Below are positions 1,960 to 57,204 of a stretch of 64,000 nucleotides of DNA, one piece after another. Each line of letters starts with the position of its first letter. The first letter of the stretch is position 1. The notes beneath the pieces were generated by a model. It ran no database searches and had not been told where the DNA came from. It worked only from the letters and a program-made list of their open reading frames with translations. Source of the DNA: Clostridia bacterium (GTDB taxonomy: Bacteria; Bacillota; Clostridia; TANB77; CAG-508); the NCBI GenBank assembly GCA_900759015.1, contig CAAEUE010000003.1:7122-71121 (forward strand), read 5' to 3'. Position numbers and translations under genes: made by a program.

Positions 1960-1986
1960 GGGATTTGGGGACGTTCCTCAAATCCC
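1960..1986 (+). repeat. REP copy 1: GGGATTTGGGGACGTTCCTCAAATCCC, 6 nt after the gdpP stop and followed by a T-run
   Basis: 7-bp terminal inverted repeat GGGATTT/AAATCCC around a GGGGACGTTCC core, shared with the other copies listed below. Confidence 0.8.
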
Positions 1987-2114
1987 TTTTTTGTTATAGA
2001 AAATAAGTTATATTAATTTTGTTTTGTGGTGATATACAATAAATTGACAAATTATGTAAAGTGAATTATAATTAATATGTTATGTGTTGTTGGTATCCTA
2101 AGGAGGGAAATTTT

Positions 2115-2318
2115 ATGCTAGAATTATTTGTCATCATTGTGTTTTTCCTGTTAGTTTCTTTAGCATTTCTACCATATTTGGCAGTTATACTTTGGGTTCT
2201 CCAAATATGTAATGAAATGGACAATGCAGTGTCAAAAAAGGAACGGTTTAAAGGATATTTCTACATAGTTCTATTAATTGTAGGAATGCTTATACATGTT
2301 TGGTTAGTTTACTATTAG
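2115..2318 (+). CDS. small hydrophobic membrane protein (67 aa), unknown function
   Basis: AAGGAGGG RBS 8 nt upstream of the ATG; two predicted TM helices. Confidence 0.4.
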   Translation: MLELFVIIVFFLLVSLAFLPYLAVILWVLQICNEMDNAVSKKERFKGYFYIVLLIVGMLIHVWLVYY

Positions 2319-2358
2319 TGGACTAACAGAGATTATTTGTTTTTACAACACAGAACTG

Positions 2359-2384
2359 GAAGCCTCCTCGTGGAGGTCTTTTTC
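2359..2384 (+). terminator. putative rho-independent terminator (GC-rich hairpin CCTCC/GGAGG followed by T-run)
   Basis: Hairpin gaagcctcctcgtggaggtc followed by ttttt. Confidence 0.4.
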
Positions 2385-2520
2385 AGTTATAGAGTTATAG
2401 ATATGCGATGTTTTTGCAATGAAAGTATACATAAAGCAATTGTTAGATATGCACATGGCATTTTTGCTAATAGCTCTTTACTGGTTAAAAAATAAGGAAT
2501 TTTTCTTGTTGATAAAAATA

Positions 2521-2625
2521 TGTGGAAATTGTGGAATACACAAAAGTTATGTGGATAAAAAAAAGGTGGATAACACGAAACTGTTAATATAAAAGGGTGG
2601 ATAATGTGGATAACTGTGTGGATAA
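2521..2625 (+). promoter_or_regulatory. DnaA-box cluster: 3 exact TGTGGATAA, 2 one-mismatch and 2 two-mismatch boxes, all in one orientation, followed by a very AT-rich tract
   Basis: Exact boxes at 2550-2558, 2605-2613 and 2617-2625. GGTGGATAA at 2565-2573 and 2596-2604. TGTGGAAAT and TGTGGAATA at 2521-2538. Confidence 0.6.
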
Positions 2626-2753
2626 TTACAAAATAGACATAAAAACAACAAAAAACTACAAAAATTGATAAAATATTAAAATTATAAATTTAATATAAAA
2701 ATATTTGAAAAAATAATTAATATATGTTACTATGAAAAAAACGAGGTGATAAT

Positions 2754-2939
2754 ATGTCAGATGATAGAAAAATAGAAGTTATAAATGGAAATGGGGATGA
2801 TTTAGAAATATCACCAGTATATGACCATTTAGATATTGAAAAACCAAATACAGAGAAAAAGAAAGAAATAGTTATACCAAAGGAAAAGAAAAAAGAAGAT
2901 AAGGATGTAGAAGAAAAAGATTCTGATGAAGAAGAATAG
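2754..2939 (+). CDS. small acidic protein (61 aa), unknown function
   Basis: GAGGTG RBS 7 nt upstream of the ATG; K/E/D-rich product. Confidence 0.35.
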   Translation: MSDDRKIEVINGNGDDLEISPVYDHLDIEKPNTEKKKEIVIPKEKKKEDKDVEEKDSDEEE

Positions 2940-3053
2940 GCAACATTGCATTAAATGTTGCTATATTTTTTGATATTGTATACATATAAATACTGAAAAA
3001 TAAGCAAAAATTATAAATTATTAAAATTAATTTTAGTTTTTAATCTTAAACTA

Positions 3054-3082
3054 TTGACAGTTACTGACAAAAATGGTATTAT
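3054..3082 (+). promoter_or_regulatory. sigma-A-type promoter for the tRNA (TTGACA-17-TATTAT)
   Basis: TTGACA at 3054-3059, 17-nt spacer, TATTAT at 3077-3082, about 20 nt upstream of the tRNA 5' end. Confidence 0.5.
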
Positions 3083-3101
3083 ATATCTTGTCCGAAGAAA
3101 T

Positions 3102-3178
3102 GGGTCAGTAGCTCAGTTGGATAGAGCATTGGCCTTCTAAGCCAAGGGTCGGGGGTTCGAATCCCTCCTGGCTCACCA
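3102..3178 (+). tRNA. tRNA-Arg (anticodon TCT), CCA encoded
   Basis: Cloverleaf: acceptor stem GGGTCAG/CTGGCTC, D arm GCTCAGTTGGATAGAGC, anticodon loop CTTCTAA, T arm GGGGGTTCGAATCCCTC. Confidence 0.9.
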
Positions 3179-3185
3179 TTTCAAA

Positions 3186-3232
3186 AAAACTCTACAATGT
3201 TGAATATCAACGTTTGTAGAGTTTTAATTTTT
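3186..3232. terminator. bidirectional terminator (nested hairpins AACTCTACAA...TTGTAGAGTT) serving the tRNA (+) and the XRE gene (-)
   Basis: 10-bp stem with flanking A/T runs on both sides. Confidence 0.55.
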
Positions 3233-3235
3233 TTA

Positions 3236-3679
3236 TTAATTTTGTTCTTTAAATAAATAAGTTAGATAGCTAGTTAATTTATTTTTATTTTCTGGAGATA
3301 AAGAATTATATATCTCGATAACATTATTTAATTGTACATCTTTTGAATCTAAATTTTTAATTTTATTAGGATTATCAGTTAATCCCAATAAATAATCTGT
3401 AGAACAATTAAAATAATTTGCAAGTTTAATTAGATTAGGAATTGTTGGAAGACTTTTTCCTAGTTCATATTGTGAAATTAATTCTTGTGACACTTCAATA
3501 TCAACTGATAATTTTAATTGTGTGACTTTTCTTTTTTCTCGCATTTTTTTCAAATTTTTTAATTTCATAATATACCTCCAGAATTTTATAGAGTAATTAT
3601 ATAAATAGGAAATGTAGTCACAAGAAGTAGTACTTATAAAAGAAAAAAATAATACAAGTAACACTTGTAAAAGGTACAA
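3236..3679 (-). CDS. XRE-family HTH transcriptional regulator (Cro/cI-like)
   Basis: HTH motif LSVDIEVSQELISQYELGKSLPTIPNLIKLANYFNCSTDYLLGL. Confidence 0.6.
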   Translation of the reverse strand: MYLLQVLLVLFFSFISTTSCDYISYLYNYSIKFWRYIMKLKNLKKMREKRKVTQLKLSVDIEVSQELISQYELGKSLPTIPNLIKLANYFNCSTDYLLGLTDNPNKIKNLDSKDVQLNNVIEIYNSLSPENKNKLTSYLTYLFKEQN

Positions 3680-3808
3680 GTATATGTTATATTTAATGTG
3701 ATTAATATTATTAATATAAGGAGGGAAAATAGGGATAAATCAATAAAAATAGTATATGCAAAATAAATAATTTGATACAAAAGAATTAATAAGGGGGAAA
3801 TAAATGAT

Positions 3809-5341
3809 ATGAATTGTAAAAAATGTGGAAATGAAATAAAAGAAGGAGAAATGTTTTGTAGTAAATGTGGAGCAAAAATTAAACAAGAAAAAAACAAGAA
3901 AAGCAATAAAAAAATAATAATTATATCTATTGCAATAGTAGTATTAATTGCAATTGCTATTGGTATTATTCTTTATTTTAATCAAAATGTTGAACAAACA
4001 AGTAAGAATGAAAATACAGTAGCAGAAAATAATGAAATTGAACAAGCAAGTTCAAATATACAGGCTAATGGGACAGATAAAGTTAGTTTTACAAACATGA
4101 ATTCAGATGATGAAAATTTAAGTGAAGATGAGCAAGCAATTTTAAAATATTTTGATAATGATTATTTTGAGTTCTCTGTTGAATTTGCACAAAGATATCC
4201 TCAAATATTTAAAGATGCAAAAGTAGAAGCCGGACCAGCTCAAGTAATTAAAGTTATAAATTCTACAGATGAAGAATATGAGGCTGTAGTAAGTATAAAT
4301 GCATATGGATTAGGAATAACATCAATGGAAGAAGATCCAGATATTAAAGATTTTTTTGTGATAAGAGGGAAACAACTATCATCAAGAATAATTGCTGGTG
4401 ATGAAGTAACAATATATGGAAGATATGTAAATGTAGAAAATTTTGAGATTGATGGTAAGACTTACAACCTACCTGTTATAAATGTAATGAATATAATTAA
4501 ACCTAATTGGACTAACAAAGAAAATGATTCAAACTATAGATTTGGATTAGATACAATAAAGCCAGTAGCTGAATATATTTTTGGAAAGAACATAAAAATA
4601 TCAGAACCTGTCTTTGGAGAAGATTATGATTTAACAACTAATAATCCTGATGAATTCTTTTATATGGTAACTTTAGATAATCAATCAAATGCTAATTTTA
4701 AGGTATTTGATATGTCCAGAAGTAATGGAACCATAAGTTATAATATAAAGCATAATAATATTTCTAGCGGAACAAATAAGGAATTATTTGTATCAGCAGA
4801 TTTTCAACATTTTATTGTAACAACATATGATAAGAATTTGAAACATATTTATATTGATTATTATGATAGAAATTTGCAAAAACAATGGGGAAGAGAATTT
4901 GAGTATACTTCTAACAACGATATGCTTGAAAGTCCAATGGATTATACAGATACACAGATGGCAATAGTTATAGATAATGATTTACATTTAATTGATTTAT
5001 CTTCTGGAGAGGATATTATAGAACCTGTAATTGTGGGAAATAAGATAAGAGTTAATATGATGAATGATGGAATTATATTAATTGGAAATGATAACAAGGA
5101 TACAATTATGAAAGTAGATTATGAAGGAAAAATTATATTTAGAACAGATGCTGATACTCAGAACTTAACAACTATTAATTATGCATATACACAAATAGTA
5201 GATGGAAAAATGGTTATATGTTTACAAGGAACAAATGAAAATTTCGTAAACCAGATAGGAGCATCATATGATGATGCATATCCAACTAAATACATTGTAT
5301 TAAATTCTGATGGTACAGTAGAAGTTTCAACAGAAGGATAA
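3809..5341 (+). CDS. membrane protein with N-terminal zinc-ribbon (CxxC-x11-CxxC), one TM and a large extracytoplasmic domain; unknown function
   Basis: MNCKKCGNEIKEGEMFCSKCG motif, hydrophobic segment at residues 35-55, AAGGGGG RBS. Confidence 0.6.
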   Translation: MNCKKCGNEIKEGEMFCSKCGAKIKQEKNKKSNKKIIIISIAIVVLIAIAIGIILYFNQNVEQTSKNENTVAENNEIEQASSNIQANGTDKVSFTNMNSDDENLSEDEQAILKYFDNDYFEFSVEFAQRYPQIFKDAKVEAGPAQVIKVINSTDEEYEAVVSINAYGLGITSMEEDPDIKDFFVIRGKQLSSRIIAGDEVTIYGRYVNVENFEIDGKTYNLPVINVMNIIKPNWTNKENDSNYRFGLDTIKPVAEYIFGKNIKISEPVFGEDYDLTTNNPDEFFYMVTLDNQSNANFKVFDMSRSNGTISYNIKHNNISSGTNKELFVSADFQHFIVTTYDKNLKHIYIDYYDRNLQKQWGREFEYTSNNDMLESPMDYTDTQMAIVIDNDLHLIDLSSGEDIIEPVIVGNKIRVNMMNDGIILIGNDNKDTIMKVDYEGKIIFRTDADTQNLTTINYAYTQIVDGKMVICLQGTNENFVNQIGASYDDAYPTKYIVLNSDGTVEVSTEG

Positions 5342-5367
5342 ATAATAAAAAAATATATATTATATAG

Positions 5368-5420
5368 AAAACTCAAGATATAGTAAATTAGATAATTTGT
5401 CTATTTCTTGAGTTTTTTGT
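5368..5420 (+). terminator. rho-independent terminator (AAAACTCAAGA...TCTTGAGTTTTTT)
   Basis: 11-bp stem followed by T6. Confidence 0.5.
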
Positions 5421-5617
5421 AATTACTTTGAGGAGTTATAAAAGTCAGTTTTTAAATACGTTTAGTATAAATGTTGTTAGAAGAAATTTTATATGGTAAA
5501 ATTAACATATTATATGAAAAAATTTATAATATATTGAACTATCAACAAAAAATTTATTAGTTTTAATATAATATTTATGACATTAGGATAATAGAAAACA
5601 GAAAGAAGAGTGGTTAA

Positions 5618-6202
5618 ATGAAATTAACAGAGGAAGAAGCTTTAAAATTATTAGAGAATTTTAAAAACAAAGTAGAAAATATAAGTTGGATAGAACATTC
5701 AATTTGTGTAGGAAATACAGCAGGAAAAATTGCAGAAAAATTGGGTATAGATGTAGAAAAAGCAAAAGCTTGTGGATATATTCATGATATAGGTAAAGGA
5801 ACAGCAGACTTTGAAAATCATCCAATGCAGGGATATAAATTTCTAAAAGAGCTAGAATATGATGAGGAATATGCCAATATTTGTTTAACGCATTCATATT
5901 TAAATAATGATATCAATTGTGTTGCAGCTGAAATGCATCCAAAGGAGATATATTTTATAAAAAAATTCATAACAAAGTACGAATATACAATTTATGACAA
6001 ATTAATAACTTTATGTGATTTAATTTCTATGAATGTTAATGTAACATTAGAAAAAAGATTAATAGATATATATGATAGGCGAGGAGTGCATAAAAATACA
6101 GTATATAATCTTAGAGAATCAAAAAAATTAAAAAAAGAATTTGATAAAATGCTAGGATATAATGTGTATAAATTGTTTCCAAAAATAATTGAAAATTTAT
6201 AA
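5618..6202 (+). CDS. HD-domain (HDIG) phosphohydrolase
   Basis: H...HD motif (HSICV...GYIHDIGKG). Confidence 0.6.
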   Translation: MKLTEEEALKLLENFKNKVENISWIEHSICVGNTAGKIAEKLGIDVEKAKACGYIHDIGKGTADFENHPMQGYKFLKELEYDEEYANICLTHSYLNNDINCVAAEMHPKEIYFIKKFITKYEYTIYDKLITLCDLISMNVNVTLEKRLIDIYDRRGVHKNTVYNLRESKKLKKEFDKMLGYNVYKLFPKIIENL

Positions 6203-6389
6203 TATGATTAAAGAATGTGTATTAAACTGTATTAAAATTAGCATATAATCATTTATTTCCAAAATAAAATCGACATTTATTTACAAAAAATAAAAACTTT
6301 TCATGAATAAAGAGTATATAAAAAACGACATAATAATAGTAAACATATTAAAATTTAGAAAATATGCAATTATTTATGAGGAGGAAAAA

Positions 6390-7292
6390 ATGAAAAGTAA
6401 ATTATATATAAAAGCATTGTTAATAATATTATTAGTTATTTCTTTAATAACTATACCCAATATAAGTAATGCCACAGAAAGAACAGCAAATGATGAAAGT
6501 ACTTTAACAAGTGCAATAACAAGTGCTACAGATGGTGATGTTATTAATTTATCTCAAGATATTACAATAACAGCTCCAATTGAAGTTTCTGGTAAATCAA
6601 TTACAATAAATGGTAATGGACATAGTATTATTGCTGGTTATACAGGAACATCTGGAAACAAAACAATTTTATCAGCAGTTTCAACTGGAAGTGTTATTAA
6701 ATTAAAAAATATTACATTAAAAAACAGCCCTAAATATGGTGTACAAGCATATGATGGTGGAAAAGTAATTTTAAATCAAGTTACGCTTTCTAACAATGCT
6801 TATGGTGGAGTTTTAATAAATGGAGGAACTGCAGAAGTTATTAATTTATCATTGATAGGAAATAAGACAGGTATAGAGATTTCAAAATCTAAATCTATAA
6901 CATCTAATAATGAGCCAACATTAATAATGAATGGTAAATTAACTTCTGATGCGACAGATAATGTTATTTATCTAGCAAATGATCCAAACGATAATACTAA
7001 TAAGTTTGTGATAGAAAACACAGATAATACAGAAAATAAAATTTTAGCAAGTGGAAATAAAGTTGTAGTAACAGATGTAAATAATAATATTTTATACACA
7101 AGTAATGAGACAACAAAGCAAATAGATGTTGAGGATTATGAAGAAAATCATCCAGAAACAGATAAAAATAATACGAGTGAAAACGATAAAGTAGAAAATC
7201 CACATACAGGAGATTCAATTTTAGGATATGTTGCAACAGGAATAATAGCTGTAATGGGAATTGCAATTTTATCAAAGAAAAATAATAAATAA
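6390..7292 (+). CDS. secreted right-handed beta-helix (pectate-lyase-fold) surface protein with C-terminal sortase signal NPHTG + TM + KKNNK
   Basis: GAGGAGG RBS, signal peptide, repeated G/N/T/S-rich beta-helix rungs. Class-B-type sorting signal NPHTGDS followed by a hydrophobic stretch and basic tail. Confidence 0.65.
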   Translation: MKSKLYIKALLIILLVISLITIPNISNATERTANDESTLTSAITSATDGDVINLSQDITITAPIEVSGKSITINGNGHSIIAGYTGTSGNKTILSAVSTGSVIKLKNITLKNSPKYGVQAYDGGKVILNQVTLSNNAYGGVLINGGTAEVINLSLIGNKTGIEISKSKSITSNNEPTLIMNGKLTSDATDNVIYLANDPNDNTNKFVIENTDNTENKILASGNKVVVTDVNNNILYTSNETTKQIDVEDYEENHPETDKNNTSENDKVENPHTGDSILGYVATGIIAVMGIAILSKKNNK

Positions 7293-7326
7293 TAAAAAAA
7301 TAAGGTGGGAATAAAATTGAAGTGCA

Positions 7327-7373
7327 CCCCAAATGTTAGACAAAAAATCTAACATTTGGAGGTGTATTTTTTA
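7327..7373. terminator. bidirectional terminator between convergent genes (CACCCCAAATGTTAGA...TCTAACATTTGGAGGTG + T-run)
   Basis: About 16-bp imperfect stem followed by TTTTTT. Confidence 0.55.
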
Positions 7374-7383
7374 TGAGTAAATA

Positions 7384-8722: not shown

Positions 8723-8814
8723 TATTACCTCCTCTATAATGTTAGACAAAATAAAGTCGAATTTCGTTACAAGAAATAAAGATTTTAAATTTAATAATAT
8801 AATTTTAATTAATA

Positions 8815-8841
8815 GGGATTTTATCACCGTCCCAAAATCCC
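8815..8841 (-). repeat. degenerate REP copy (GGGATTTTATCACCGTCCCAAAATCCC) followed by phased A-tracts
   Basis: Terminal GGGATTT/AAATCCC arms retained; core diverged. Confidence 0.5.
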
Positions 8842-8895
8842 AAATACTGTTTTCCAAAATTCCGAAAACTGTCCAAAAATCCTGAAAAGCCTATA

Positions 8896-9640: not shown

Positions 9641-9691
9641 AATTAGTATAACTAATAATAAAAAAAATATGCTTTTTAGTAGATTTAGACC

Positions 9692-9720
9692 TTGAGAGGG
9701 TAGGAAAAATATGGTATAAT
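9692..9720 (+). promoter_or_regulatory. sigma-A promoter (TTGAGA-17-TATAAT with TGn extension) driving a ~135-nt leader upstream of scpB
   Basis: TTGAGA at 9692-9697, TATAAT at 9715-9720. Confidence 0.5.
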
Positions 9721-9869
9721 TAAGCCATCTTCGAAATCTTTGATTTCGCCCAGGTGTGCTATATGCGAAGAAAATTGAGGCTAAGATACCTTTGAAATCT
9801 TTGGTTTCGTTAGATTAAAATAAGAGATAAAAAAACAATATAAGCAAATTAACTTTACGAGGAGATATT

Positions 9870-10475: not shown

Positions 10476-10503
10476 AAAGAAGATTAAATTTGGAGGTTAA
10501 ATA

Positions 10504-11943: not shown

Positions 11944-11957
11944 TATAAAATATTAAA

Positions 11958-21178: not shown

Positions 21179-21318
21179 TTAACATATTAAATTTCGAAAA
21201 AATTCAAAAAAAACTCCCCAAAACCCGAAAAACGTGTTATAATGTGGTCGAAGTGTTATATTTATATAAAATACCTAGTAATATATTATTGAAATATAAT
21301 AAATAAAGGAGATAATAT

Positions 21319-26693: not shown

Positions 26694-26744
26694 GGGATTT
26701 GGGGCTGTTCCTACGGTGGGATTTGGGGACGTTCCTTAAATCCC
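26694..26744 (+). repeat. REP copy 3: partial unit (26694-26712) fused to a full unit (26718-26744)
   Basis: GGGATTTGGGGCTGTTCCT-ACGGT-GGGATTTGGGGACGTTCCTTAAATCCC. Confidence 0.8.
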
Positions 26745-26849
26745 GATTGACTATAAATATAATGAATTTTAGGTATAGAAGTAAAAAAAGCTTAACAAAA
26801 AATTTGAATGTTAAGCTCCATCCCTAAAGTTCAGAAGGGAGAAAAACAC

Positions 26850-28352: not shown

Positions 28353-28360
28353 GAATAGGA

Positions 28361-28386
28361 GGGATTTAGAGACGTTCCTAAAATCC
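28361..28386 (+). repeat. REP copy 4 (degenerate): GGGATTTAGAGACGTTCCTAAAATCC
   Basis: 9 nt after the UDG stop. Confidence 0.6.
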
Positions 28387-28391
28387 ATATA

Positions 28392-29029: not shown

Positions 29030-29056
29030 GGGATTTAAAGAACGTCCCCAAATCCC
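29030..29056 (-). repeat. REP copy 5 (inverted orientation): GGGATTTAAAGAACGTCCCCAAATCCC
   Basis: Exact reverse complement of the TTCTTT variant. Confidence 0.8.
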
Positions 29057-31610: not shown

Positions 31611-31742
31611 ATGACATAAACAGAGAAGCAACTCGCACGAGTTGCTTTTCTGTTTTTTATATACATGTACTTAAATATGTTTACTTTTTCCATTTTTTGA
31701 TATATAATGCTTGCAAATGCAAAGAATGAAGGGATGAAGGTT

Positions 31743-36913: not shown

Positions 36914-37411
36914 ATGGTAGAAGAGCAAAAAATATTATCAATTATAGATTATATAAATCAAAATAATATTTGTGATAAATATTTAAATAAATTGAAGAAT
37001 ATAATCGGTAATAATGCAGAAATAATATCAAGAGTAAAAGAAAAACAATCTGCAATAGACAAAATGAAAATAAGACATTTTGTTTCTGCAAATCAAATAA
37101 GTGATTTTATTGGATATATGATAATTACAGATACAGTAGAAGATGTTTATAAAATAAAAAATAGAATAGAAAATAACTTGGGAAATTGTTTAGAGGAAGA
37201 TTATATAAAAAATCCAAAGAATGGTTATAAAAGTATACATTTAAACTATTTAGTAGAAAAAAATATTCCTCTAGAGATTCAAATAAAAACAAAGCAAATG
37301 AAGGCAGCACAAGATATAGTGCATGATAAAATATATAAGAATTTTAATTTATCAGAAGAATTAAGAAATGTGCTTAGCAATTTAGTGTTTTTAAAAGTTC
37401 TAAAGCAATAA
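36914..37411 (+). CDS. small RelA/SpoT-synthetase-domain protein (SAS-like, 165 aa)
   Basis: Synthetase-fold motifs SRVKEKQSAIDKMKIR, DFIGYMIIT, GYKSIHLNY and EIQIKTKQM...H. Confidence 0.55.
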   Translation: MVEEQKILSIIDYINQNNICDKYLNKLKNIIGNNAEIISRVKEKQSAIDKMKIRHFVSANQISDFIGYMIITDTVEDVYKIKNRIENNLGNCLEEDYIKNPKNGYKSIHLNYLVEKNIPLEIQIKTKQMKAAQDIVHDKIYKNFNLSEELRNVLSNLVFLKVLKQ

Positions 37412-37423
37412 AGATTTTAATCT

Positions 37424-37834
37424 TTATTGCTTTTTCATTTTAGGTTTTGCAATTAAAGAAGCTAAATAACCAAAGAATATTGCAGCAGCAATTCCACCTG
37501 CTGCATTTTTTATACCACCAGTAAAAGCACCAAGAAGCCCAGAAGTTTTAACGCCTTCTATTGCACCTTTTGCTAAATTGTATCCAAAACCAGTAAGAGG
37601 AACAGTTGCACCAGCGCCTGCAAAATCAACTAAATATTTATATAAACCAAGTCCACCTAAAATAACACCAGCAGTTACAAAAGTAACTAATATTCTAGCA
37701 GAAGTTAGTTTAGTTTTATCAATTAAAATTTGTCCTATTACACATATTAATCCACCAACGACAAAAGCTTTTAAAAGTGTAGACCATTCAAAAACAGCTG
37801 ACCAATCAATATTACTCATGAAATCTCCTCCCAA
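37424..37834 (-). CDS. spoVAEb: stage V sporulation protein AEb
   Basis: SpoVAC/SpoVAEb family signature VGGLICVIGQIL...DFAGAGATVPLTGFG. Confidence 0.75.
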   Translation of the reverse strand: MGGDFMSNIDWSAVFEWSTLLKAFVVGGLICVIGQILIDKTKLTSARILVTFVTAGVILGGLGLYKYLVDFAGAGATVPLTGFGYNLAKGAIEGVKTSGLLGAFTGGIKNAAGGIAAAIFFGYLASLIAKPKMKKQ

Positions 37835-37885
37835 GGATTTAGAAACGTTCTTTTTATAGAGATTTCAAAGAACGTTTCTTAATCT
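37835..37885. repeat. two degenerate REP halves in inverted orientation forming a 13-bp-stem hairpin (AGAAACGTTCTTT / AAAGAACGTTTCT)
   Basis: GGATTTAGAAACGTTC... and GATTTCAAAGAACGTTTCTTAATC; lies between spoVAEb and the divergent 660-aa gene. Confidence 0.5.
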
Positions 37886-37998
37886 CGAATTATTTTATAC
37901 TAATATTTTGTGCACGAATTGATAATTTTATACAGTTTTGGAATATTGAATGCTAGAAAAAGTTATGATAAAATTATTAAAAAATTGATTTTTAAAGG

Positions 37999-39981: not shown

Positions 39982-40405
39982 TTATTCTAAAGCATATGTA
40001 GAAGTATTAGAAATTTTAAAATATATTCCAAAAGAAGACTTAAAAAAAATTCCAAAAGATATAATATTTACTTTAGAAAAATGTGCAGATAAGGAGCATA
40101 TCTTTAGAATTAATAAAAGTATTCCTTTTGAAGAACAGAATTTAATGGAAGAAACAAAAGATATACTAGCAAACTTTTTTAGAGATTATTGGGCAACTGA
40201 TTTTCAAAGAGAGCAAATTTTGATAAAAGAAAAACAAGATGAGTATGAATTAGAAGAGAATAAGATAAAAATTAATTATGATGAAGTATTTAAGAATAAA
40301 AAGACAGAAGAAAAACCAAAAACAGAATTAACAGTACTACCAGAAAAAAAGTGGTATGAGAAGTTTTTGGATTATATAAAAAAAGTATTTAAATTAAAAA
40401 AATAG
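39971..40405 (+). CDS. unknown-function charged/coiled protein (144 aa), overlapping the upstream gene
   Basis: ATG overlaps the stop of the 660-aa gene by 11 nt. Confidence 0.4.
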   Translation: MNNNYSKAYVEVLEILKYIPKEDLKKIPKDIIFTLEKCADKEHIFRINKSIPFEEQNLMEETKDILANFFRDYWATDFQREQILIKEKQDEYELEENKIKINYDEVFKNKKTEEKPKTELTVLPEKKWYEKFLDYIKKVFKLKK

Positions 40406-40483
40406 AGATTTTGTTTAAACAAAATCTCTATTTTTAAGAATTAGCACCTAAGCTAATAGATTTATTACAAATACATATTAAGG

Positions 40484-40569
40484 AAAAAAGAATGTCTCTA
40501 AATCACGAGTGCAAAAAAAGAATGTTCCTAAATACAGAGGAAAAAAAGAAACGTTCCTCAATCCTTAAT
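40484..40569 (+). repeat. tandem triplet of ~28-bp units derived from the REP right half (AAAAAAGAA-t/c-GTTCCT-c/a-AAT-c/a-C...)
   Basis: Units at 40484-40512, 40513-40540 and 40541-40569, ending 3 nt before the spoVAD stop. Confidence 0.55.
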
Positions 40570-42321: not shown

Positions 42322-42395
42322 TTAATTTAATTTTATACAGATGGATGATATAATATAAAAAAGAATTGGGAGGGACGCTCCTTTTTTCCTTTTTC

Positions 42396-42422
42396 GGGAT
42401 TTGGGGACGTTCCTTAAATCCC
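42396..42422 (+). repeat. REP copy: GGGATTTGGGGACGTTCCTTAAATCCC, preceded by a partial unit (GGGAGGGACGCTCC)
   Basis: Exact consensus. Confidence 0.8.
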
Positions 42423-42452
42423 GAAAAACATGAAGTGAAAGGAATACATATA

Positions 42453-43754
42453 ATGAAAATTGATTTTGCGCGAAATATTGCATTAAGAATTCTGTATGAA
42501 ATAAATACAAAACAAGCTTATTCAAATATAGTTTTGGATAAATATATAAATTCAAATAGGGAAAAATTAAACAAGCTAGATATAAATTTTATATCAGAAT
42601 TAGTTTATGGTGTTGTAACTTGGAAATTATCATTAGAGTATATAATTCAAAAATATTCAAAAATAAAAATAAAGAAAATGTCTGATTGGGTAAAAAATAT
42701 TTTATATTTAGGCGGTTATCAAATAATATTTTTAGATAAAGTACCAAAATCAGCAGCTGTAAATGAATGTGTTAATTTATGTAAGAAATATAATTTTAAA
42801 TCAGTTGGATTGGTTAATGCAATTTTAAGAAAAATAGATAAAAATGATTATGAAGAAATTGATCATATAACTAATATTATTACAAGAATAAGTTTAAAAT
42901 ATTCTATGCCAGAATGGATTGTAAGAAAATTTTATGAAGAATATGGAGAAGAACAAACAGTTAATATTTGCCAAAATTTAAATTTAAGACCTAATATAGC
43001 GGTTAGGGTAAATAGGATGAAAAATAAAATCGAAATAGGAGAAAAAGGAATATTAGATGATTTTAGAATAATTACAGGAACAAAAAATATTACCAAAACT
43101 AAAGAATATATAGAAGGATATATAACTATTCAAGATGAAGCAGCAGGTTTAAGTAGTTTTATTTTAGATCCAAAAGAGGGTGAAAATGTTTTAGATGCAT
43201 GTAGTGCACCTGGTGGAAAAACCACTTATTTGGCAGAGATTATGAACAATAAAGGATGTATTATAGCATGGGATATTTATGAAGAAAGATTAAAACAAGT
43301 AAATCAAAATGCTAAAAGATTAGGCATTGATATTATACAAACAGAAGTAAATGATGCTACAAAATTAAAAGAAGAATATATAAATAAATTTGATAAAATA
43401 TTGTTAGATGTTCCATGTTTGGGCTTAGGAGTAATTAGAAGGAAGCCAGATATAAAATGGAACAGACAAGAAAGTAATATAGAAGAAATTTCTAATATCC
43501 AATTTAACATATTAAAAATATGTTCTAAATATTTAAAAGATGATGGTGTTTTAGTATATTCTACTTGTAGTATGCTAAAAGAAGAAAATGAGAAAATAAT
43601 TGAGAAATTTATAAACGAAGAGGACTTTGAAACAATTAATGTAGATCAAAAGATTCCAAGTGAATTTTCTAAAATAACTACTAATAATATGGTTCAATTT
43701 TTACCAAGTAAAAATCATGATGGATTTTTTATAACAAAGTTAAAAAGAATATAA
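42453..43754 (+). CDS. rsmB: 16S rRNA (cytosine967-C5)-methyltransferase RsmB/Sun (NusB-like N-domain + SAM methyltransferase)
   Basis: DACSAPGGKT SAM motif and PCLGLGVIRRKPD catalytic region. Start trimmed so the REP element is not translated. Confidence 0.7.
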   Translation: MKIDFARNIALRILYEINTKQAYSNIVLDKYINSNREKLNKLDINFISELVYGVVTWKLSLEYIIQKYSKIKIKKMSDWVKNILYLGGYQIIFLDKVPKSAAVNECVNLCKKYNFKSVGLVNAILRKIDKNDYEEIDHITNIITRISLKYSMPEWIVRKFYEEYGEEQTVNICQNLNLRPNIAVRVNRMKNKIEIGEKGILDDFRIITGTKNITKTKEYIEGYITIQDEAAGLSSFILDPKEGENVLDACSAPGGKTTYLAEIMNNKGCIIAWDIYEERLKQVNQNAKRLGIDIIQTEVNDATKLKEEYINKFDKILLDVPCLGLGVIRRKPDIKWNRQESNIEEISNIQFNILKICSKYLKDDGVLVYSTCSMLKEENEKIIEKFINEEDFETINVDQKIPSEFSKITTNNMVQFLPSKNHDGFFITKLKRI

Positions 43755-47820: not shown

Positions 47821-47904
47821 AAAAAAATTACTTAAATACTTGTACAAATTTTAAGATTGTGATATAAATTATGTATGGAATTTTATAAGAAAGGTGGAAC
47901 ATTT

Positions 47905-51004: not shown

Positions 51005-51009
51005 GAGGA

Positions 51010-51942: not shown

Positions 51943-52834
51943 ATTTAAAAAGCCAGGTAAAATATATTTTTTTGACCCAGCAGGATTAAAATTAAATTTG
52001 CAAGATATGGTTATAGCTGATACTGCAAATGGTGAAGAATTTGCTAAAATAGCTATGGCAAATAAATTAATGCCTGATGAGAAAATAGTAGAACCTTTAA
52101 GAAAAGTAATAAGATTGGCTAATAAAAAAGACATAAGGCAAAATGAAGAAAATAAAGAAAAAGAGAAAGAAGCTTTTAAGATAGCATTAGATAAAATAGC
52201 AAAGCATAAATTACCAATGAAGCTTATAGATGTAGAATATAAATTTGATAGATCAAAAATATTATTCTATTTTACAGCAGATGGTAGAATAGATTTCAGG
52301 GAATTGGTAAAAGATTTGGCAGCTATTTTTAAAACTAGAATAGAGCTTAGACAAATAGGGGTTAGAGACGAAGTTAGAAGAATGGGTGGAAACGGAGTTT
52401 GCGGAAGAGAATTATGTTGTTGTAGTTTTTTAAACAACTTTGATGCAGTTTCTATAAAAATGGCTAAAGAACAAAACATGTCACTAAACCCATCTAAAAT
52501 ATCTGGAGTATGTGGTAGACTAATGTGCTGTTTAAAATATGAACAAGAAGCTTACGAGGAAAAATTAGAAAGATTACCAAAAGTAGGCTCAATTGTAGAA
52601 ACAGTAGATGGAGAAGGAACAGTAGATAGTGTAGAAATATTAAAAGAAAATGTAAGAGTAAAATTTGAAGATGATGATGGATATCATTATAAGAAATATA
52701 AAGCAGAAGAAGTCAAATTAATAAGAGCAAGTGAAACAGAAGAAATCGATCCAGAAGAAAAGGAAAACAAAAAAGAACTAGAAGAACTTGAAAATTTAGC
52801 AAAAAATGATATATTAGTAGATGATGATATGTAA
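51920..52834 (+). CDS. ricT: PSP1-domain protein YaaT/RicT
   Basis: PSP1 C-terminal domain with the Cys cluster GVCGRELCCCSF...CGRLMCCLKYE. Confidence 0.75.
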   Translation: MKEVVGIKFKKPGKIYFFDPAGLKLNLQDMVIADTANGEEFAKIAMANKLMPDEKIVEPLRKVIRLANKKDIRQNEENKEKEKEAFKIALDKIAKHKLPMKLIDVEYKFDRSKILFYFTADGRIDFRELVKDLAAIFKTRIELRQIGVRDEVRRMGGNGVCGRELCCCSFLNNFDAVSIKMAKEQNMSLNPSKISGVCGRLMCCLKYEQEAYEEKLERLPKVGSIVETVDGEGTVDSVEILKENVRVKFEDDDGYHYKKYKAEEVKLIRASETEEIDPEEKENKKELEELENLAKNDILVDDDM

Positions 52835-52926
52835 TAAATGATATTATATAACATATAATGAACTAATATATTATAGCAAAAAAATAGAAGTAGCAAAATT
52901 GGTAGAAGGAAATATAGTACTGAAAG

Positions 52927-53109
52927 GTGGTGAAAAATATGGCATATAAAATAACAGATAAATGTATAAGTTGTGGAGCTTGTGCAGCAGAATGTCCAGT
53001 AGGATGCATTTCACAAGGAGATGATAAATTCGTAATAGATCCAGAAGCATGTATATCTTGTGGTACATGTGCGGGAGTTTGTCCTGTTGAAGCTCCAGAG
53101 GAAGCATAA
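52927..53109 (+). CDS. 2x[4Fe-4S] ferredoxin
   Basis: Two CxxCxxCxxxCP motifs in 60 aa. Confidence 0.8.
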   Translation: MVKNMAYKITDKCISCGACAAECPVGCISQGDDKFVIDPEACISCGTCAGVCPVEAPEEA

Positions 53110-53135
53110 AAATATAATATACATATTATTGGATA

Positions 53136-53162
53136 GGGATTTGGGGACGTTCTTTAAATCCC
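53136..53162 (+). repeat. REP copy (left flank of the RAYT gene): GGGATTTGGGGACGTTCTTTAAATCCC
   Basis: Exact reverse complement of the copy at 54140-54166. Confidence 0.85.
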
Positions 53163-53327
53163 TAAATTATTTTAAAGAATGTCCTATATATAATTAAGTA
53201 TTTTTATATCTTTAGAATTTTTATAATCATTTTTTTCCTATAATTAAAAATTAATTTTTTTTATTATTATCTAATTTATTATTAATTCCAAAATTATATC
53301 CAAATTAGTAAAATAAAAGGAGGGCTG

Positions 53328-54110
53328 ATGTCTAGAATTGCTAGAAAAAATATAGTATCTAAATTTGTACATATTGTTGCAAAAGGTATAAAGAGTGAAT
53401 TTATTTTTTATAAACAAGAATACAAAGAAAAGTATATTTTTTTGTTAAAAAAATGTATTAAAGAGTTAGAGGGGATAGATTTAATAGCATATTGTGTTAT
53501 GGATAATCATGTACATTTATTGATACATATCGAGGAAATAAATAAAGCTGAAACACTTATGCGAAAAATAAATACAGCATATGCTATATTTTATAACTTA
53601 CAAGAAGAGAGATCTGGATATGTTTTTTTCAATAGATATCATTCTGAAATAATAGAAAATGGTATTCATTTGCTTTCTTGTATAAAATATATTCATGAAA
53701 ATCCGGTGAAAGCAGGAATAGTAGAAAGAGGTCGTTTTTATCAGTATTCTTCATGTAAAGCTTTTATAGAGGAAGAGAGGAGTAATGATATTTTATGTTC
53801 GATTTTTGGAAATAATTTTAAATATGAATCTAATGAGATAGATGAAAGAATTGAATATCATTTTATTGATGAAGATGAGAGATTGGAAAAAATTGAAAGA
53901 CAAAGTGTAGAAATAATTATCAAAGAATTTTGTAATAAGTATAATACATCTATAACTGAAATTAGAAAATCTAATAGCTTAATAATAGAGTTCAAAAATT
54001 ATTTAAAGGTAAAATATAAAATAAGTAATAAAAATATTTGTGCTATGTTAGGAATAGGTAAAAATAGAATTTCGATAATTGAGAAAAAAGCTAAAAAAAT
54101 AAATAGATAA
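53328..54110 (+). CDS. REP-associated tyrosine transposase (RAYT, IS200-like Y1 HuH) with C-terminal DnaA-domain-IV-like HTH
   Basis: HuH motif DNHVHLLIH; Tyr motif YIHENPVKAG; C-terminal ICAMLGIGKNRISIIEKKAKK resembles the DnaA C-terminal HTH. Confidence 0.7.
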   Translation: MSRIARKNIVSKFVHIVAKGIKSEFIFYKQEYKEKYIFLLKKCIKELEGIDLIAYCVMDNHVHLLIHIEEINKAETLMRKINTAYAIFYNLQEERSGYVFFNRYHSEIIENGIHLLSCIKYIHENPVKAGIVERGRFYQYSSCKAFIEEERSNDILCSIFGNNFKYESNEIDERIEYHFIDEDERLEKIERQSVEIIIKEFCNKYNTSITEIRKSNSLIIEFKNYLKVKYKISNKNICAMLGIGKNRISIIEKKAKKINR

Positions 54111-54139
54111 GGATTTATAATAAAAAAAGTAGTGAAAGT

Positions 54140-54166
54140 GGGATTTAAAGAACGTCCCCAAATCCC
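54140..54166 (-). repeat. REP copy (right flank of RAYT): GGGATTTAAAGAACGTCCCCAAATCCC
   Basis: Perfect inverted partner of 53136-53162. Confidence 0.85.
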
Positions 54167-54182
54167 TAAAGGAGATATACAA

Positions 54183-54506
54183 ATGAAAATAACTTGGCTA
54201 ACTAGAAGGAAAAGTTTCGAAGAAATTAAGCCAAATAGAAAGGTAAGATATGAACAGATATTAGAAAGTTTGTGCTTAGGAAATAAAACAGCTAAAGAAA
54301 TTGCTGTTGAACTGTATAAACAAAAATTAACCAATACTGATGAACGTAATACAACAGCACCAAGATTAACAGAATTGGAAAAAATGGGTTTTGTAGAAGC
54401 AACTGCGAAAAAAACATGTAAATATACAGGAAAAACAGTTACAGTTTATAAAATAACAAGATTAGGATTTAAAATTATAGATAATAATATAAATAGAAAG
54501 AGTTAA
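54183..54506 (+). CDS. small winged-helix-like DNA-binding protein (107 aa) lying between two same-orientation REPs
   Basis: AAAGGAG RBS; wHTH-like ILESLCLGNKTAKEIAVEL...RLTELEKMGFVE...VTVYKIT. Confidence 0.4.
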   Translation: MKITWLTRRKSFEEIKPNRKVRYEQILESLCLGNKTAKEIAVELYKQKLTNTDERNTTAPRLTELEKMGFVEATAKKTCKYTGKTVTVYKITRLGFKIIDNNINRKS

Positions 54507-54586
54507 GATAAAGAAATCTTAACTCTTAAAAATTTAAGTTATAAAAGAAAAAATATCATAGATTTGTAACTTAAGTATATTGAAAA

Positions 54587-54619
54587 AGAGGGAAAAAAGG
54601 AACGTCCCCAAATCCCTCT
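54587..54619 (-). repeat. REP variant (AGAGGG-AAAAAAGGAACGTCCCCAAATCCCTCT)
   Basis: Right half identical to the consensus; left arm replaced, giving an extended AGAGGG/CCCTCT stem. Confidence 0.6.
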
Positions 54620-54628
54620 TTCACTATT

Positions 54629-55582
54629 TTATTCTTTATTTGTCATTTCTTCTAATTGTAGCAATTCATTCCATCTCTTATCAACTATTCTTTGGAATTC
54701 TTCTATCATCCACTCATTTCCTGGTTTAAACATATGTCTAAAACGTTTTTGTGGTTTTAAGAATTCTTCTACTGGAAGTTTTTTAGCAGGTTTATATGTT
54801 ATTTTATATTTACCATCTACAACTTCATATAATGGCCAATAACATGTATCTGCAGCTAATTTGTTAATTTGCATTAAGTCTTCTGTTGGGTATCCCCATC
54901 CTCTTGGGCAAGGAGCCATTACATTTAAGAATGTTGGTCCTTCTGTATATATGGCTTTTTCTGCTTTTTCATATAAATCTTTAAAATTAGTCATAGCAAG
55001 AGTTTGTGCAACATATGGTAAATGATGTGATACCATTATTTCTGTTAAGTCTTTTCTTTCTTGTGCTTTACCTGGGATAACTGTTCCAGCAGGTGAAGTT
55101 GTTGTATCTGCAAATTTTGGTGTTGCAGAAGAACGTTGAATACCTGTGTTCATATATGCACCATTATCGTAACATACATAAACCATATCATGACCTCTTT
55201 CCATAGCACCTGAAAGTGATTGTAAACCTATATCATAAGTTCCACCATCTCCACCAAATGCGATGAATTTTGTATGTGTATCTTCTTTTAATTTTCCTTG
55301 TTTCTTTAAAGATTTGTATGCAGCTTCAACACCAGATAGTGTACTTCCAGCATTTTCGAAAGCTGTATGAATAAATGAATCTGTCCAAGATGTATATGGG
55401 TATGTAAATGTAGAAACTTCCATACATCCAGTAGCTGTAGCAATTACAGCATGATCTTCTGGCTTTAATGCACGTAAAACCATTCTAGCAACTGGTGGAG
55501 CTCCACAACCTGCACACATTTTATGTCCTTCAGAAAATCTTGAAGGCTTATTTGCGACTACTTCTTTTAAATTATATGGCAT
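54629..55582 (-). CDS. porB: 2-oxoacid:ferredoxin oxidoreductase beta subunit (TPP-binding)
   Basis: TPP motif GDGG...YDIG and the CxxC pair. Confidence 0.8.
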   Translation of the reverse strand: MPYNLKEVVANKPSRFSEGHKMCAGCGAPPVARMVLRALKPEDHAVIATATGCMEVSTFTYPYTSWTDSFIHTAFENAGSTLSGVEAAYKSLKKQGKLKEDTHTKFIAFGGDGGTYDIGLQSLSGAMERGHDMVYVCYDNGAYMNTGIQRSSATPKFADTTTSPAGTVIPGKAQERKDLTEIMVSHHLPYVAQTLAMTNFKDLYEKAEKAIYTEGPTFLNVMAPCPRGWGYPTEDLMQINKLAADTCYWPLYEVVDGKYKITYKPAKKLPVEEFLKPQKRFRHMFKPGNEWMIEEFQRIVDKRWNELLQLEEMTNKE

Positions 55583-56778
55583 TATTTTTCAGCTCCTTTC
55601 GTTCTTAATCCTAAATGTCTATAAGGATTATCAATTTTTCCTGTTTCTACGATTTCTAATAAATCATTATAAACTTTTTCGATGTCATCAGATTTTGTAT
55701 CTCTACCACCAATTCCATAGATATAACTTACTGTAGGTACGTGGATATTATTTACATACATACCAGATGTAACATCTGTAAATAATGCACCACCTGCAGC
55801 ATTTAAAGAATCTGCTTTATCTAATACTGCAACTGCTTTTACATTTTCTAAAGCTTTTGCAATTTCCTCTGCAGGGAATGGTCTAAATACACGAACCTTT
55901 AATAATCCGGCTTTAACACCTTTACTACGTAAATCATCTACTACGAATTTTGCAGTTCCTGCTGTAGAGTTCATACAAACAATAGCAACATCTGCATCTT
56001 CTAATCTATATTCTTCGAATAAACCATATTTTCTACCTGTTAATTTTTCAAATTCTTCTGCTACTTCTAAAATAACTTTTTTAGCATTTTTCATAGCTTG
56101 TGATTGCTGAGCTTTATGTTCAAATAAGAAACCTTGTAAATCTAGAGGTCCCATAGAAATTGGCTCTTTACTATTTAATAAGTAATGTTCTGGTTTATAT
56201 GTACCAACAAATTCTTTTACTTTATCATCTTCTACTAAATCTATTGTTTCTATAGAATGTGATGTAATAAATCCATCTTGGCAAACCATTAATGGTAATA
56301 AAACATCTTTATGTTCTGCAATTCTATGAGCCATTAATAAGTTATCATATGCTTCTTGATTACTTTCTGAAAATAACATTATCCATCCAGCATCACGAAC
56401 ACCCATTGCATCAGAGTGATCATTGTGGATATTTAATGGTCCAGATACAGCACGATTTACAAGTGACATTACTATAGGTAAACGTAATGATGAAGCTATG
56501 TATATCATTTCCCACATGAAAGATAATCCGTTTGAAGATGTAGCTGTCATAGCTCTAGCACCTGCAGCTTCTGCACCAACACAGGCACTCATTGCACTAT
56601 GTTCACTTTCTACTGCAACGAATTCTGTATCAACAGCACCATTGCTAACAAAAGTAGAAAAATATTGTGGTATTTCTGTTGATGGTGTAATAGGGAAGGC
56701 AGCAACAACGTCTGGATTTATTTGCTTCATAGCTGTAGCTGCAGCTTCATTACCACTTAAACGTTCTCTAATACTCAT
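55582..56778 (-). CDS. porA: 2-oxoacid:ferredoxin oxidoreductase alpha subunit
   Basis: POR/KOR alpha family; ATG overlaps the upstream stop. Confidence 0.8.
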   Translation of the reverse strand: MSIRERLSGNEAAATAMKQINPDVVAAFPITPSTEIPQYFSTFVSNGAVDTEFVAVESEHSAMSACVGAEAAGARAMTATSSNGLSFMWEMIYIASSLRLPIVMSLVNRAVSGPLNIHNDHSDAMGVRDAGWIMLFSESNQEAYDNLLMAHRIAEHKDVLLPLMVCQDGFITSHSIETIDLVEDDKVKEFVGTYKPEHYLLNSKEPISMGPLDLQGFLFEHKAQQSQAMKNAKKVILEVAEEFEKLTGRKYGLFEEYRLEDADVAIVCMNSTAGTAKFVVDDLRSKGVKAGLLKVRVFRPFPAEEIAKALENVKAVAVLDKADSLNAAGGALFTDVTSGMYVNNIHVPTVSYIYGIGGRDTKSDDIEKVYNDLLEIVETGKIDNPYRHLGLRTKGAEK

Positions 56779-57083
56779 TATTCAATTCCCTCCTCTACCA
56801 TTGAGATTGCTTTGAAAGGACAAACTTTGGCACAAACGCCACATCCTTTACAATAATCATAATTAAAATCTGTTCTTTTCATATCTTTTCCAACTGGAAT
56901 AGCGTTTTCTGGGCAAACAGGGAAACATAAACCACATTGTTTACATTTTTCGCTATCAAATATAGGTTTCATGCTTCTCCAATCTCCAGTTTTAACTTCA
57001 CGAGAATTTCCAGCATTATATATTGTTCCTCCAATTGTCATATCTTCCATTGGAGTTGAGTTATTTATATTTGTCTTATCCAT
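56778..57083 (-). CDS. porD: 2-oxoacid:ferredoxin oxidoreductase delta subunit (2x[4Fe-4S])
   Basis: CKQCGLCFPVCP and CKGCGVCAKVCP. Confidence 0.75.
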   Translation of the reverse strand: MDKTNINNSTPMEDMTIGGTIYNAGNSREVKTGDWRSMKPIFDSEKCKQCGLCFPVCPENAIPVGKDMKRTDFNYDYCKGCGVCAKVCPFKAISMVEEGIE

Positions 57084-57177
57084 TTTTAAACTCCTTTCTC
57101 GATTTTTAACTTTGTATATGGTTATTAAATTTTAGTTTGATGAATTTATTTGACCATAACTACTTTAAAGTATTTTA

Positions 57178-57204
57178 GGGATTTTAGGACCGTCCCCGAA
57201 TCTC
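57178..57204 (-). repeat. degenerate REP copy inside the por operon (between gamma and delta genes): GGGATTTTAGGACCGTCCCCGAATCTC
   Basis: Same family; right arm mutated. Confidence 0.55.

Follow-up and report, generated by a model that had tools for sequence, protein, structure and literature searches.

What sustains a 27-bp palindromic repeat that recurs between the genes of an uncultured gut Clostridia bacterium is the question raised by a stretch of 64,000 nucleotides of its genome (assembly GCA_900759015.1, contig CAAEUE010000003.1, positions 7,122 to 71,121; the window in what follows). A preliminary description, made from the letters alone, had read the repeat as a family of at least 13 copies, most of them placed 3' of genes as terminator or mRNA-stabilising hairpins; it overlooked the decisive feature, a transposase gene at 53328-54110 lying between two of the copies that it had listed. 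We consider it highly probable that the window holds a repeat family of the repetitive extragenic palindrome (REP) type together with its cognate REP-associated tyrosine transposase (RAYT), in the arrangement known as a REPtron or TIRtron, and that the enzyme would act on the repeats. The gene and its two flanking copies are as follows.

53134-53164, plus strand: repeat copy, left flank of the transposase gene, 24 nt past the ferredoxin stop codon; 50.9 bits
53328-54110, plus strand: gene for a RAYT or TnpA_REP-like HUH Y1 transposase of 260 aa, whose C-terminal extension is helical and resembles a helix-turn-helix (HTH) domain
54138-54168, minus strand: repeat copy, right flank of the transposase gene, 29 nt past the transposase stop codon and adjoining the ribosome-binding site of the open reading frame (ORF) 54183-54506; 45.7 bits

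The product of ORF 53328-54110 belongs among the REP-associated HUH/Y1 transposases and is more similar to TnpA_REP than to the enzymes of the insertion sequence (IS) family IS200/IS605. Pfam Y1_Tnp was matched at 32.6 bits against a cut-off of 23, and the NCBIfam model REP_Tyr_transpos scored 61.5 bits (E 8e-17) versus 16.8 bits (E 0.006) for the IS200 model. In an alignment of 27 homologous sequences at 26-88% identity, H61, H63, Y121, N125 and P126 were invariant within the motifs H61-V-H63 (HUH) and Y121-IHE-N125-P126, and through the invariance of Y121, N125 and P126 the protein displays the Y---NP signature of class 2, or TnpA_REP, transposases (Quentin et al. 2018, PMC6006769). A search of the PDB with the single window sequence returned nothing useful, the match coming instead from the homologue profile, for which 4er8, the E. 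coli TnpA_REP in complex with a REP hairpin, was best (E 4.5e-7; ISDra2, E 0.024). An AlphaFold2 model of the protein (pLDDT 84.7) likewise had 4er8_A as its top Foldseek match (E 2.6e-7, TM 0.69), ahead of IS608 and ISDra2, and homologues are named RayT or REP-associated tyrosine transposase at JGI and NCBI.

Beyond the catalytic region, S141 and S142 were conserved in the 27 homologues, and residues 192-259 are predicted to form a helical domain (pLDDT 84-95). Some homologues carry Bac_DnaA_C (PF08299) or HTH Pfam domains; the window protein itself gave no significant HTH match in Pfam and profile searches. The transposase resembles TnpA_REP class 2 and, as judged by these features, appears to stand nearest to the HTH-bearing group termed TIRYT or subclass 2.1.

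The two flanking copies form a perfect inverted repeat around the gene, with 53134-53162 and 54140-54168 being 100% complementary over 29 bp. The gene is also bracketed by repeats in each fully covered locus from related genomes (such loci carry L numbers here: L013, L031 and L046), and L070 and L009, each holding part of it, together represent a fourth related species. By tblastn, the window and each related species represented in approximately 690 kb of related loci (L031, L046, L070/L009 and L013) were found to contain a single transposase locus. Homologues at 56%, 54% and 40% identity lie in the same chromosomal slot, between PSP1/ferredoxin genes and a thiamine pyrophosphate (TPP)/POR oxidoreductase operon, and occupation of this slot down to 40% identity argues for vertical inheritance, as has been reported for RAYTs (PMC5581495).

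Two further features of this locus were observed. The 163 nt that separate the left repeat from the start of the transposase gene (53165-53327) are AT-rich and include, at 53170-53184, a conserved partial reverse core with the sequence TTTTAAAGAATGTCC; its counterpart is AAAGAACGTTC in the three species most closely related and AAAGAACGTCT in L013, and it may serve in regulation or binding. The plus-strand ORF 54183-54506 (107 aa), which comes next after the transposase gene, gave weak PadR/Csa3-type HTH matches at most, and its ribosome-binding site starts 3 nt past the reverse-oriented repeat 54140-54166. This ORF is kept beside the 54%-identical homologue (L093, 10963-11277) and is absent in L095 and L098.

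The repeat family itself was delimited in the window by several methods. A pattern search with the 27-mer GGGATTTGGGGACGTTCCTTAAATCCC, consensus of GGGATTTGGGGACGTTCCTTAAATCCCC, allowing up to 3 mismatches, gave 8 matches (1960, 22284, 26718, 42396 and 53136 on the plus strand; 29030, 54140 and 54590 on the minus strand) and none in 100 shuffles, and an independent repeat finder recovered the same 27-bp family. A covariance model built from 112 distinct copies identified 11 full copies at E <= 5e-8 and a 12th, weaker copy at 40537-40567 on the minus strand (E 1e-4). A position-weight scan with the left 20 nt of the repeat added a half unit at 26694-26713, which scored 25 bits against a best of 9.6 among 560,000 shuffled positions. 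The family of at least 13 copies is therefore borne out by 13 units (11 full, one weaker and one half), found within 3 nt of where they had been placed, and the asymmetric core does set their orientation, the called strand scoring 19-35 bits above the opposite one in the covariance model. A scan of the window at Rfam gathering thresholds matched only a tRNA, so the repeat corresponds to no described RNA family. Apart from the two copies flanking the transposase gene, the units in the window are these.

1958-1988, plus strand: repeat copy, 5 nt past the gdpP stop codon and followed by TTTTTT
8813-8843, minus strand: degenerate repeat copy between sortase and sigma-factor genes (both minus strand); 36.3 bits
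22281-22312, plus strand: repeat copy, left arm longer by one T, 17 nt past the ftsZ stop codon
26694-26713, plus strand: half unit, then a full copy at 26716-26746, downstream of pgeF
28359-28389, plus strand: degenerate repeat copy, 8 nt past the udg stop codon
29028-29058, minus strand: repeat copy after a nudix gene, antisense to the plus-strand genes on either side
37837-37888, no strand: two degenerate units facing each other, remnants, upstream of the minus-strand spoVAC/spoVAEB-type gene 37424-37819
40480-40567, minus strand: three tandem degenerate units after the spoVAD stop codon; E 1e-4, 0.66 and 2.8
42360-42392, plus strand: remnant TTTT-type unit, then a full copy at 42394-42424, 30 nt before the rsmB start, between divergent genes
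54588-54618, minus strand: repeat copy of the TTTTCCC subfamily, 12 nt past the stop codon of a TPP-enzyme gene (minus strand)
57176-57206, minus strand: degenerate repeat copy between POR-gamma and ferredoxin genes (minus-strand operon); 39.8 bits

The neighbouring genes named in the preliminary description were recovered by Pfam (GdpP, FtsZ, PgeF-type Cu-oxidase_4, UDG, NUDIX, ferredoxin and RsmB). With the spoVAC/spoVAD genes in the window, the organism is probably a spore former. The decayed units were individually non-significant in the covariance model (37837-37888, 40480-40533 and 42360-42392, E 0.5-7 overall and 0.5-0.8 for the two units at 37837-37888), and in the array after spoVAD significance was reached only by 40537-40567, with one unit present at that site in a related species. 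Alignment to a related species revealed unit-sized indels at 40484-40569 and 42367-42385; the further remnant suspected at 21210-21235 is a loose resemblance. The ftsZ site likewise holds one or three units in related species. As had been pointed out, and as the sequence and the ORF list confirm, the repeat is translated in frame as GIWGRSLNP within ORFs 42366..43754 (rsmB) and 53999..54334, a warning for annotation in that it inflates ORF starts.

A collection of species-representative genomes was then compared with the exact 27-mer, with C or T allowed at position 18. It matched 92 stretches, all in approximately 8 species known as uncultured gut metagenome-assembled genomes (Clostridium sp. 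CAG:354, UMGS1570 and similar), to which parts of the window align at 88-98% identity, so that the window derives from a close relative of theirs. Exact copies numbered 10-21 per species representative among the 80 of the 92 stretches listed and were dispersed on many contigs, which suggests tens of copies per genome rather than more than 100. A REP-like family with copies beyond the window, as first proposed, is what these matches reveal, and confinement to the window, the outcome that would have spoken against it, was not what was found. In UMGS1570, 4 of approximately 21 exact-consensus copies fall in the region orthologous to the 64-kb window (L006, L027 and L046), and the copies of this species may cluster near the transposase gene.

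The anatomy of the repeat was drawn from 171 distinct copies (up to 6 mismatches) in the window and related loci. It is an imperfect palindrome of 27-31 nt, (TA)GGGATTT-GGGGACGTTCCTT-AAATCCC(TA), best conserved at positions 1-20 (GGGATTTRGGGACGKTCCTT), with A12, C13 and G14 essentially invariant and G-T mismatches conserved at pairs 10-22 and 11-21. Two forms occur: approximately 130 copies end in AAATCCC and are palindromic, and approximately 30 end in TTTTCCC and pair just GGG with CCC. The 7-bp paired arms first described are conserved in the family, with the exception of the subfamily represented by the copy at 54590, whose right arm, TTTTCCC, is not complementary to the left one. Outside the arms, T-A (or C) is favoured on the left side and T/G-A-T-T-T-T on the right; for the pair formed by positions 0 and 28, counts of A-T and C-G were close to independence. 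In the RNA fold of the forward strand, 14 bp, some of them G-U, stack without interruption (-18.8 kcal/mol, z -4.7); that of the reverse strand is broken by a 2x2 internal loop (-13.0 kcal/mol). As DNA, both strands fold alike (-8.8 kcal/mol, z -4.4, and -8.0 kcal/mol). The TTTTCCC copies folded no better than shuffles.

Copies that lie close together are arranged head to tail. Truncated or decayed left halves precede many copies, and of 63 neighbour pairs at most 60 nt apart, 56 were direct, 7 convergent and none divergent. The inverted doublets of REPINs or the alternating order of bacterial interspersed mosaic elements (BIMEs), raised as a possibility in the preliminary description, are therefore not the organisation of these close pairs. 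The longest regular array found, at 2530-2622 of L032, consists of three perfect-period 33-bp tandem units of the TTTC variant GGGATTTAAGGACGTTCCTTTCTTCCCCCATTC. A second short repeat, GGGACTAGGGGACAGTCC, and its variants adjoin the main repeat in L005, L026, L064, L084 and L085 (ERR9465714_bin.18); it matches the published TIRYT motif GGGGWSAS, and this match suggests a second pair of repeat and enzyme in that genome. Amongst other kinds of repeat, a G-quadruplex reading was dropped since each unit has just two G-runs, a DNA-uptake sequence was dropped for want of a competence context, and a CRISPR-like reading was dropped as spacer arrays are absent. A literature search with the core sequence matched only unrelated primers.

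Distant relatives bear on what an enzyme of this type might recognise. Homologues at 31-56% identity from at least 7 further lineages have inverted hairpins on either side, with arms that differ and an apical core, GGGACGG/T, that stays the same; the host genomes range from 28 to 50% GC and include Neobacillus cucumis. The following flanking hairpins illustrate this.

L093: GGGATTTT-GGGGACGTACCTT-AAAATCCC
L096: GAAACATTT-GGGGACGGTCTT-AAATGTTTC, with the AAAT/TTTT dimorphism here too
L099: CAGGCAA-GGGGACGGTTCTT-TTGCCTG, 50% GC
L101: GCGACA-GGGGACGGTTCTCCCT-TGTCGC
L103, Neobacillus cucumis: AGCATG-GGGACGGTTCT-CATGCT, abundant and often in inverted doublets

GGGACG was invariant across the eight aligned lineages. 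As MAFFT lost the register of the 3' arm across differing loop lengths, the lineages were folded one by one, and 8 of the 11 sequences folded had GGGACG at the apex; L095, L100 and L102 gave no clear hairpin on folding. The arms are therefore conserved within the family and replaced by different, complementary ones in other lineages. Read from the sequences, this change of arms around a constant apex is real covariation evidence, and support for the hairpin structure comes solely from the cross-lineage comparison. In L103 (PGVE01000058.1), approximately 12 repeat sites occur in 20 kb, with inverted, core-sharing doublets GGGGACGGTTCTCATGCTTCnnnnGAAGCATGAGAACCGTCCCC, so the same enzyme family accompanies REPIN-like doublets in a Bacillus relative.

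The same anatomy bears on whether the repeats could be miniature inverted-repeat elements of a TA-targeting DDE transposon of the Tc1/IS630 kind, with the position of the Y1 gene between two copies being fortuitous. Inverted terminal arms and TA as the commonest flank on either side are what such elements would have; the TA is found on both sides in only 28 of 171 copies, a minority, and merely extends the palindrome. A length of 27 bp is also too short for two transposase-binding ends and an interior. No DDE transposase with matching ends was noticed in the window, the related loci not having been scanned for one, and Y1 genes are bracketed by core-sharing hairpins in at least 8 independent lineages. 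We find this explanation scarcely credible.

The age of the sites was judged by comparing orthologous ones. A copy was kept in 180 of 185 site-by-orthologue comparisons, and the 5 comparisons that lacked a partner involved decayed copies or a 51-nt indel, with no clean insertions. Between species the 27-mer was 95% identical, versus 61% and 78% for its 40-nt flanks, in loci that had been chosen by exact repeat match. Unit numbers at the sites vary locally between species.

To assess placement, genes were called from ORFs in a simple manner that handles small genes imperfectly. Genes of at least 100 aa contain only 3 of 188 copies. Amongst the 162 copies with two neighbours, 121 lie between co-directional genes, 34 between convergent and 7 between divergent ones; the corresponding numbers for the 553 intergenic regions of the loci are 440, 60 and 53. 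The family is thus extragenic and mainly found between co-directional and convergent genes, as is usual for REPs. Most copies in the window do lie 3' of genes, as first described, the copy at 42396 in the divergent region upstream of rsmB being an exception; the position after stop codons also stands, with the qualification that at 29030 and 54140 the copy runs antisense to the preceding gene.

These placements, taken together with the folds, allow an explanation in which the hairpins are terminators or 3' mRNA stabilisers evolved by the host and spread by selection, unrelated to the transposase. The more stable fold of the forward RNA fits it, as does a T-run after the forward side of 91 of 171 copies (53%, versus 20% on the other side and 23% in the background). 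The GGGATTT end adjoins genes, 80 of 113 sense copies lying at most 40 nt from a co-directional stop codon, and sense copies outnumber antisense ones by 79 to 42 amongst the 121 co-directional copies (p ~0.001, with orthologous sites not being independent). Genes are on the leading strand, as judged by GC skew, in 113 of 116 co-directional repeat contexts, an extreme gene-strand bias, and in the window the skew is positive throughout at a G+C content of 24-31%. In all three contexts with genes on the lagging strand the copies are sense. Because gene direction and replication direction are confounded, the 2:1 orientation bias may reflect RNA-level selection or strand-specific insertion.

Several observations run counter to a purely host-derived terminator. 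A terminator scan accepted only 2 of 12 window copies, of which that at 29030 runs antisense to the genes around it; a third of all copies are antisense; and the TTTTCCC subfamily does not fold beyond chance. Termination would not need an apical GGGACG that is invariant across lineages with divergent arms, and a RAYT-type gene is bracketed by perfect inverted copies in every lineage examined. The window also has ordinary terminators of unrelated sequence, listed below. We regard this explanation as unlikely. A terminator or stabiliser role is nevertheless plausible, from their sequence, for the forward copies with T-runs, and to this extent the role first suggested for the whole family survives.

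31618-31655, plus strand: conventional terminator-like hairpin unrelated to the repeat
37402-37433, plus strand: conventional terminator-like hairpin unrelated to the repeat
40398-40435, minus strand: conventional terminator-like hairpin unrelated to the repeat
54498-54527, minus strand: conventional terminator-like hairpin unrelated to the repeat, approximately 60 nt beyond the repeat at 54590 and downstream of the same TPP-enzyme gene
59676-59696, minus strand: conventional terminator-like hairpin unrelated to the repeat

Copies near start codons display a polarity of their own. The GGGATTT end lies at most 25 nt from the start of a gene pointing away from it in 13 of 49 cases, and the other end does so in 1 of 86. 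In the 13 cases the repeat, in reverse orientation on the mRNA strand, stops 1-6 nt ahead of the Shine-Dalgarno sequence; examples are 54140-54182 in the window, L014 5113, L092 178 and L034 5998. Copies that touch the ribosome-binding site in this way, the invariant core with its near-palindromic arms, the helical HTH-like C-terminal domain of the Y1 protein and the Bac_DnaA_C or HTH domains of its homologues would all be compatible with duplex operator sites that define a regulon, bound by the HTH domain of the Y1 protein or by the HTH-like ORF 54183-54506. Operators would not be expected to avoid divergent promoter regions, where only 7 of 162 copies lie versus 53 of 553 intergenic regions, and the majority of copies directly follow stop codons. 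The neighbouring genes are functionally unrelated, and the degenerate tandem half units fit decaying repeats, not operators. We give the operator explanation very little credence.

A repeat family maintained by its own RAYT remains our preferred explanation, and a mechanism can be outlined from the anatomy of the locus and from homology to TnpA_REP of E. coli. The enzyme would read the hairpin in single-stranded DNA, as do E. coli TnpA_REP and the IS200/IS605 transposases, with sequence and strand specificity provided by the invariant apical GGGACG and the conserved G-T mismatches. By binding, cutting and rejoining, it would seed and homogenise copies in intergenic DNA. The copies would survive where harm is small, downstream of genes and seldom in divergent promoter regions, and would expand and contract locally as head-to-tail arrays. 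Any role at the RNA level, with the forward hairpin and its T-rich tail serving as terminator or 3' stabiliser at some sites, is probably secondary and co-opted.

A number of points weigh against this explanation. Among the 185 comparisons there was no clean pair of filled and empty sites that would mark the insertion boundaries and target. The conservation figures carry an ascertainment bias because the loci were chosen by exact repeat match. Within the family, pairing was 82.3% versus 81.6% in column shuffles, a covariation test that is uninformative because the copies are near-identical. The 61.5-bit transposase match lies below the trusted cut-off of 80 of the equivalog NF047646 and covers residues 44-141 alone. 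The copy number per genome is modest and well below that of classical REP families (10-21 exact copies, among 80 of the 92 stretches), and the GTAG tag read by TnpA_REP of the E. coli type is missing from the end of the repeat. Additionally, no REP-like structures were described beside subclass 2.1 genes (Quentin et al. 2018, PMC6006769).

The window system shares its main traits with the REPtrons of E. coli, Pseudomonas and Stenotrophomonas (Nunvar 2010, PMC2817692; Ton-Hoang 2012, PMC3333891; Messing 2012, PDB 4ER8; Corneloup 2021, PMC8266576). As in these, short imperfect palindromes outside genes are enriched where the neighbouring genes are co-directional or convergent, an HUH/Y1 gene present once and inherited vertically lies between inverted copies, enzyme and repeat co-vary between lineages, and 4ER8 is the best match of the window protein in sequence and fold. 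It differs in lacking an unpaired GTAG at the foot of the hairpin and in having an invariant GGGACG at the apex, in close copies that run head to tail with truncated upstream units rather than as inverted doublets or alternating BIMEs, in a protein approximately 95 aa longer with a helical C-terminal domain, and in its copies, apparently tens and not hundreds, in a low-GC Firmicute. Nor does the family belong to the GTAG/CGTC-tagged REP super-families of Di Nocera 2013, positions -3 to 0 being WTA or WTC. CGTC is present on the complementary strand at the apex of the hairpin and not at its end, and the stem, loop and tail rules of the CGTC families do not fit.

A closer likeness seems to exist to TIRtrons and their TIRYT enzymes (Di Nocera 2013, PMC3733652), which have been equated with TnpA_REP subclass 2.1, whose proteins bear an HTH-type extension at the C-terminus and, downstream of the catalytic tyrosine, a serine motif (Quentin 2018, PMC6006769). 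The window protein is RAYT-like, has a predicted helical C-terminal extension that may be of this type, and shares with its homologues the serines S141 and S142 beyond the catalytic tyrosine. The flank motif is G-rich in both: the TIRYT motif GGGGWSAS and the present core GGGGACGK agree at 7 of 8 positions if K is G and at 6 of 8 in the window family (K = T), departing at position 7 (G for A) and also at position 8 when K is T. TIRtron repeat families are, like this one, moderately abundant and at times self-complementary; unlike theirs, the flanking repeat here forms a compact hairpin of 27 nt that recurs at dozens of sites outside genes. As to Firmicute examples, the word 'Firmicutes' is absent from the main texts of PMC3733652 and PMC6006769, and no Clostridium appears in the Di Nocera supplements.

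With IS200/IS605 elements such as IS608 and ISDra2, the system has in common the HUH/Y1 fold, the catalytic motifs and the use of hairpin signals, which in those elements are sub-terminal and read as single-stranded DNA. Unlike a multi-copy IS, the window gene is single-copy and syntenic, and its flanks are identical inverted copies rather than distinct left and right ends; the IS200 model scores only 16.8 bits. With REPINs (Bertels and Rainey 2011, PMC3116915) it shares a RAYT-associated, vertically persisting repeat population, most sites being common to several species; the inverted doublet is not the common unit here, direct pairs prevailing amongst close neighbours.

Altogether, the system is an example of the known REP/RAYT kind in an under-described phylum and not a new kind of element, and the general picture of REPs is unchanged by it. 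What is known of REP/RAYT systems comes almost entirely from Proteobacteria. The window offers a compact example in uncultured low-GC gut Clostridia, in which 64 kb contain the enzyme, the two copies beside it and a dozen dispersed ones. The distant homologues point to the apical motif as the likely recognition element, which gives a handle on the DNA choice of the subclass. A wider proposition, which we put forward tentatively and with some doubt, is that the GGGACG-apex hairpin is the general DNA signal of the large HTH-bearing subclass 2.1 or TIRYT branch across Firmicutes. If it is true, subclass 2.1 enzymes would maintain true REP populations, although the literature describes this branch as having no REP-like partners. 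Recognition would proceed via a conserved apex and not a GTAG foot, possibly through the C-terminal HTH domain, with arrays running head to tail, and the host would have co-opted copies both as strand-specific terminators and as hairpins set directly against ribosome-binding sites.

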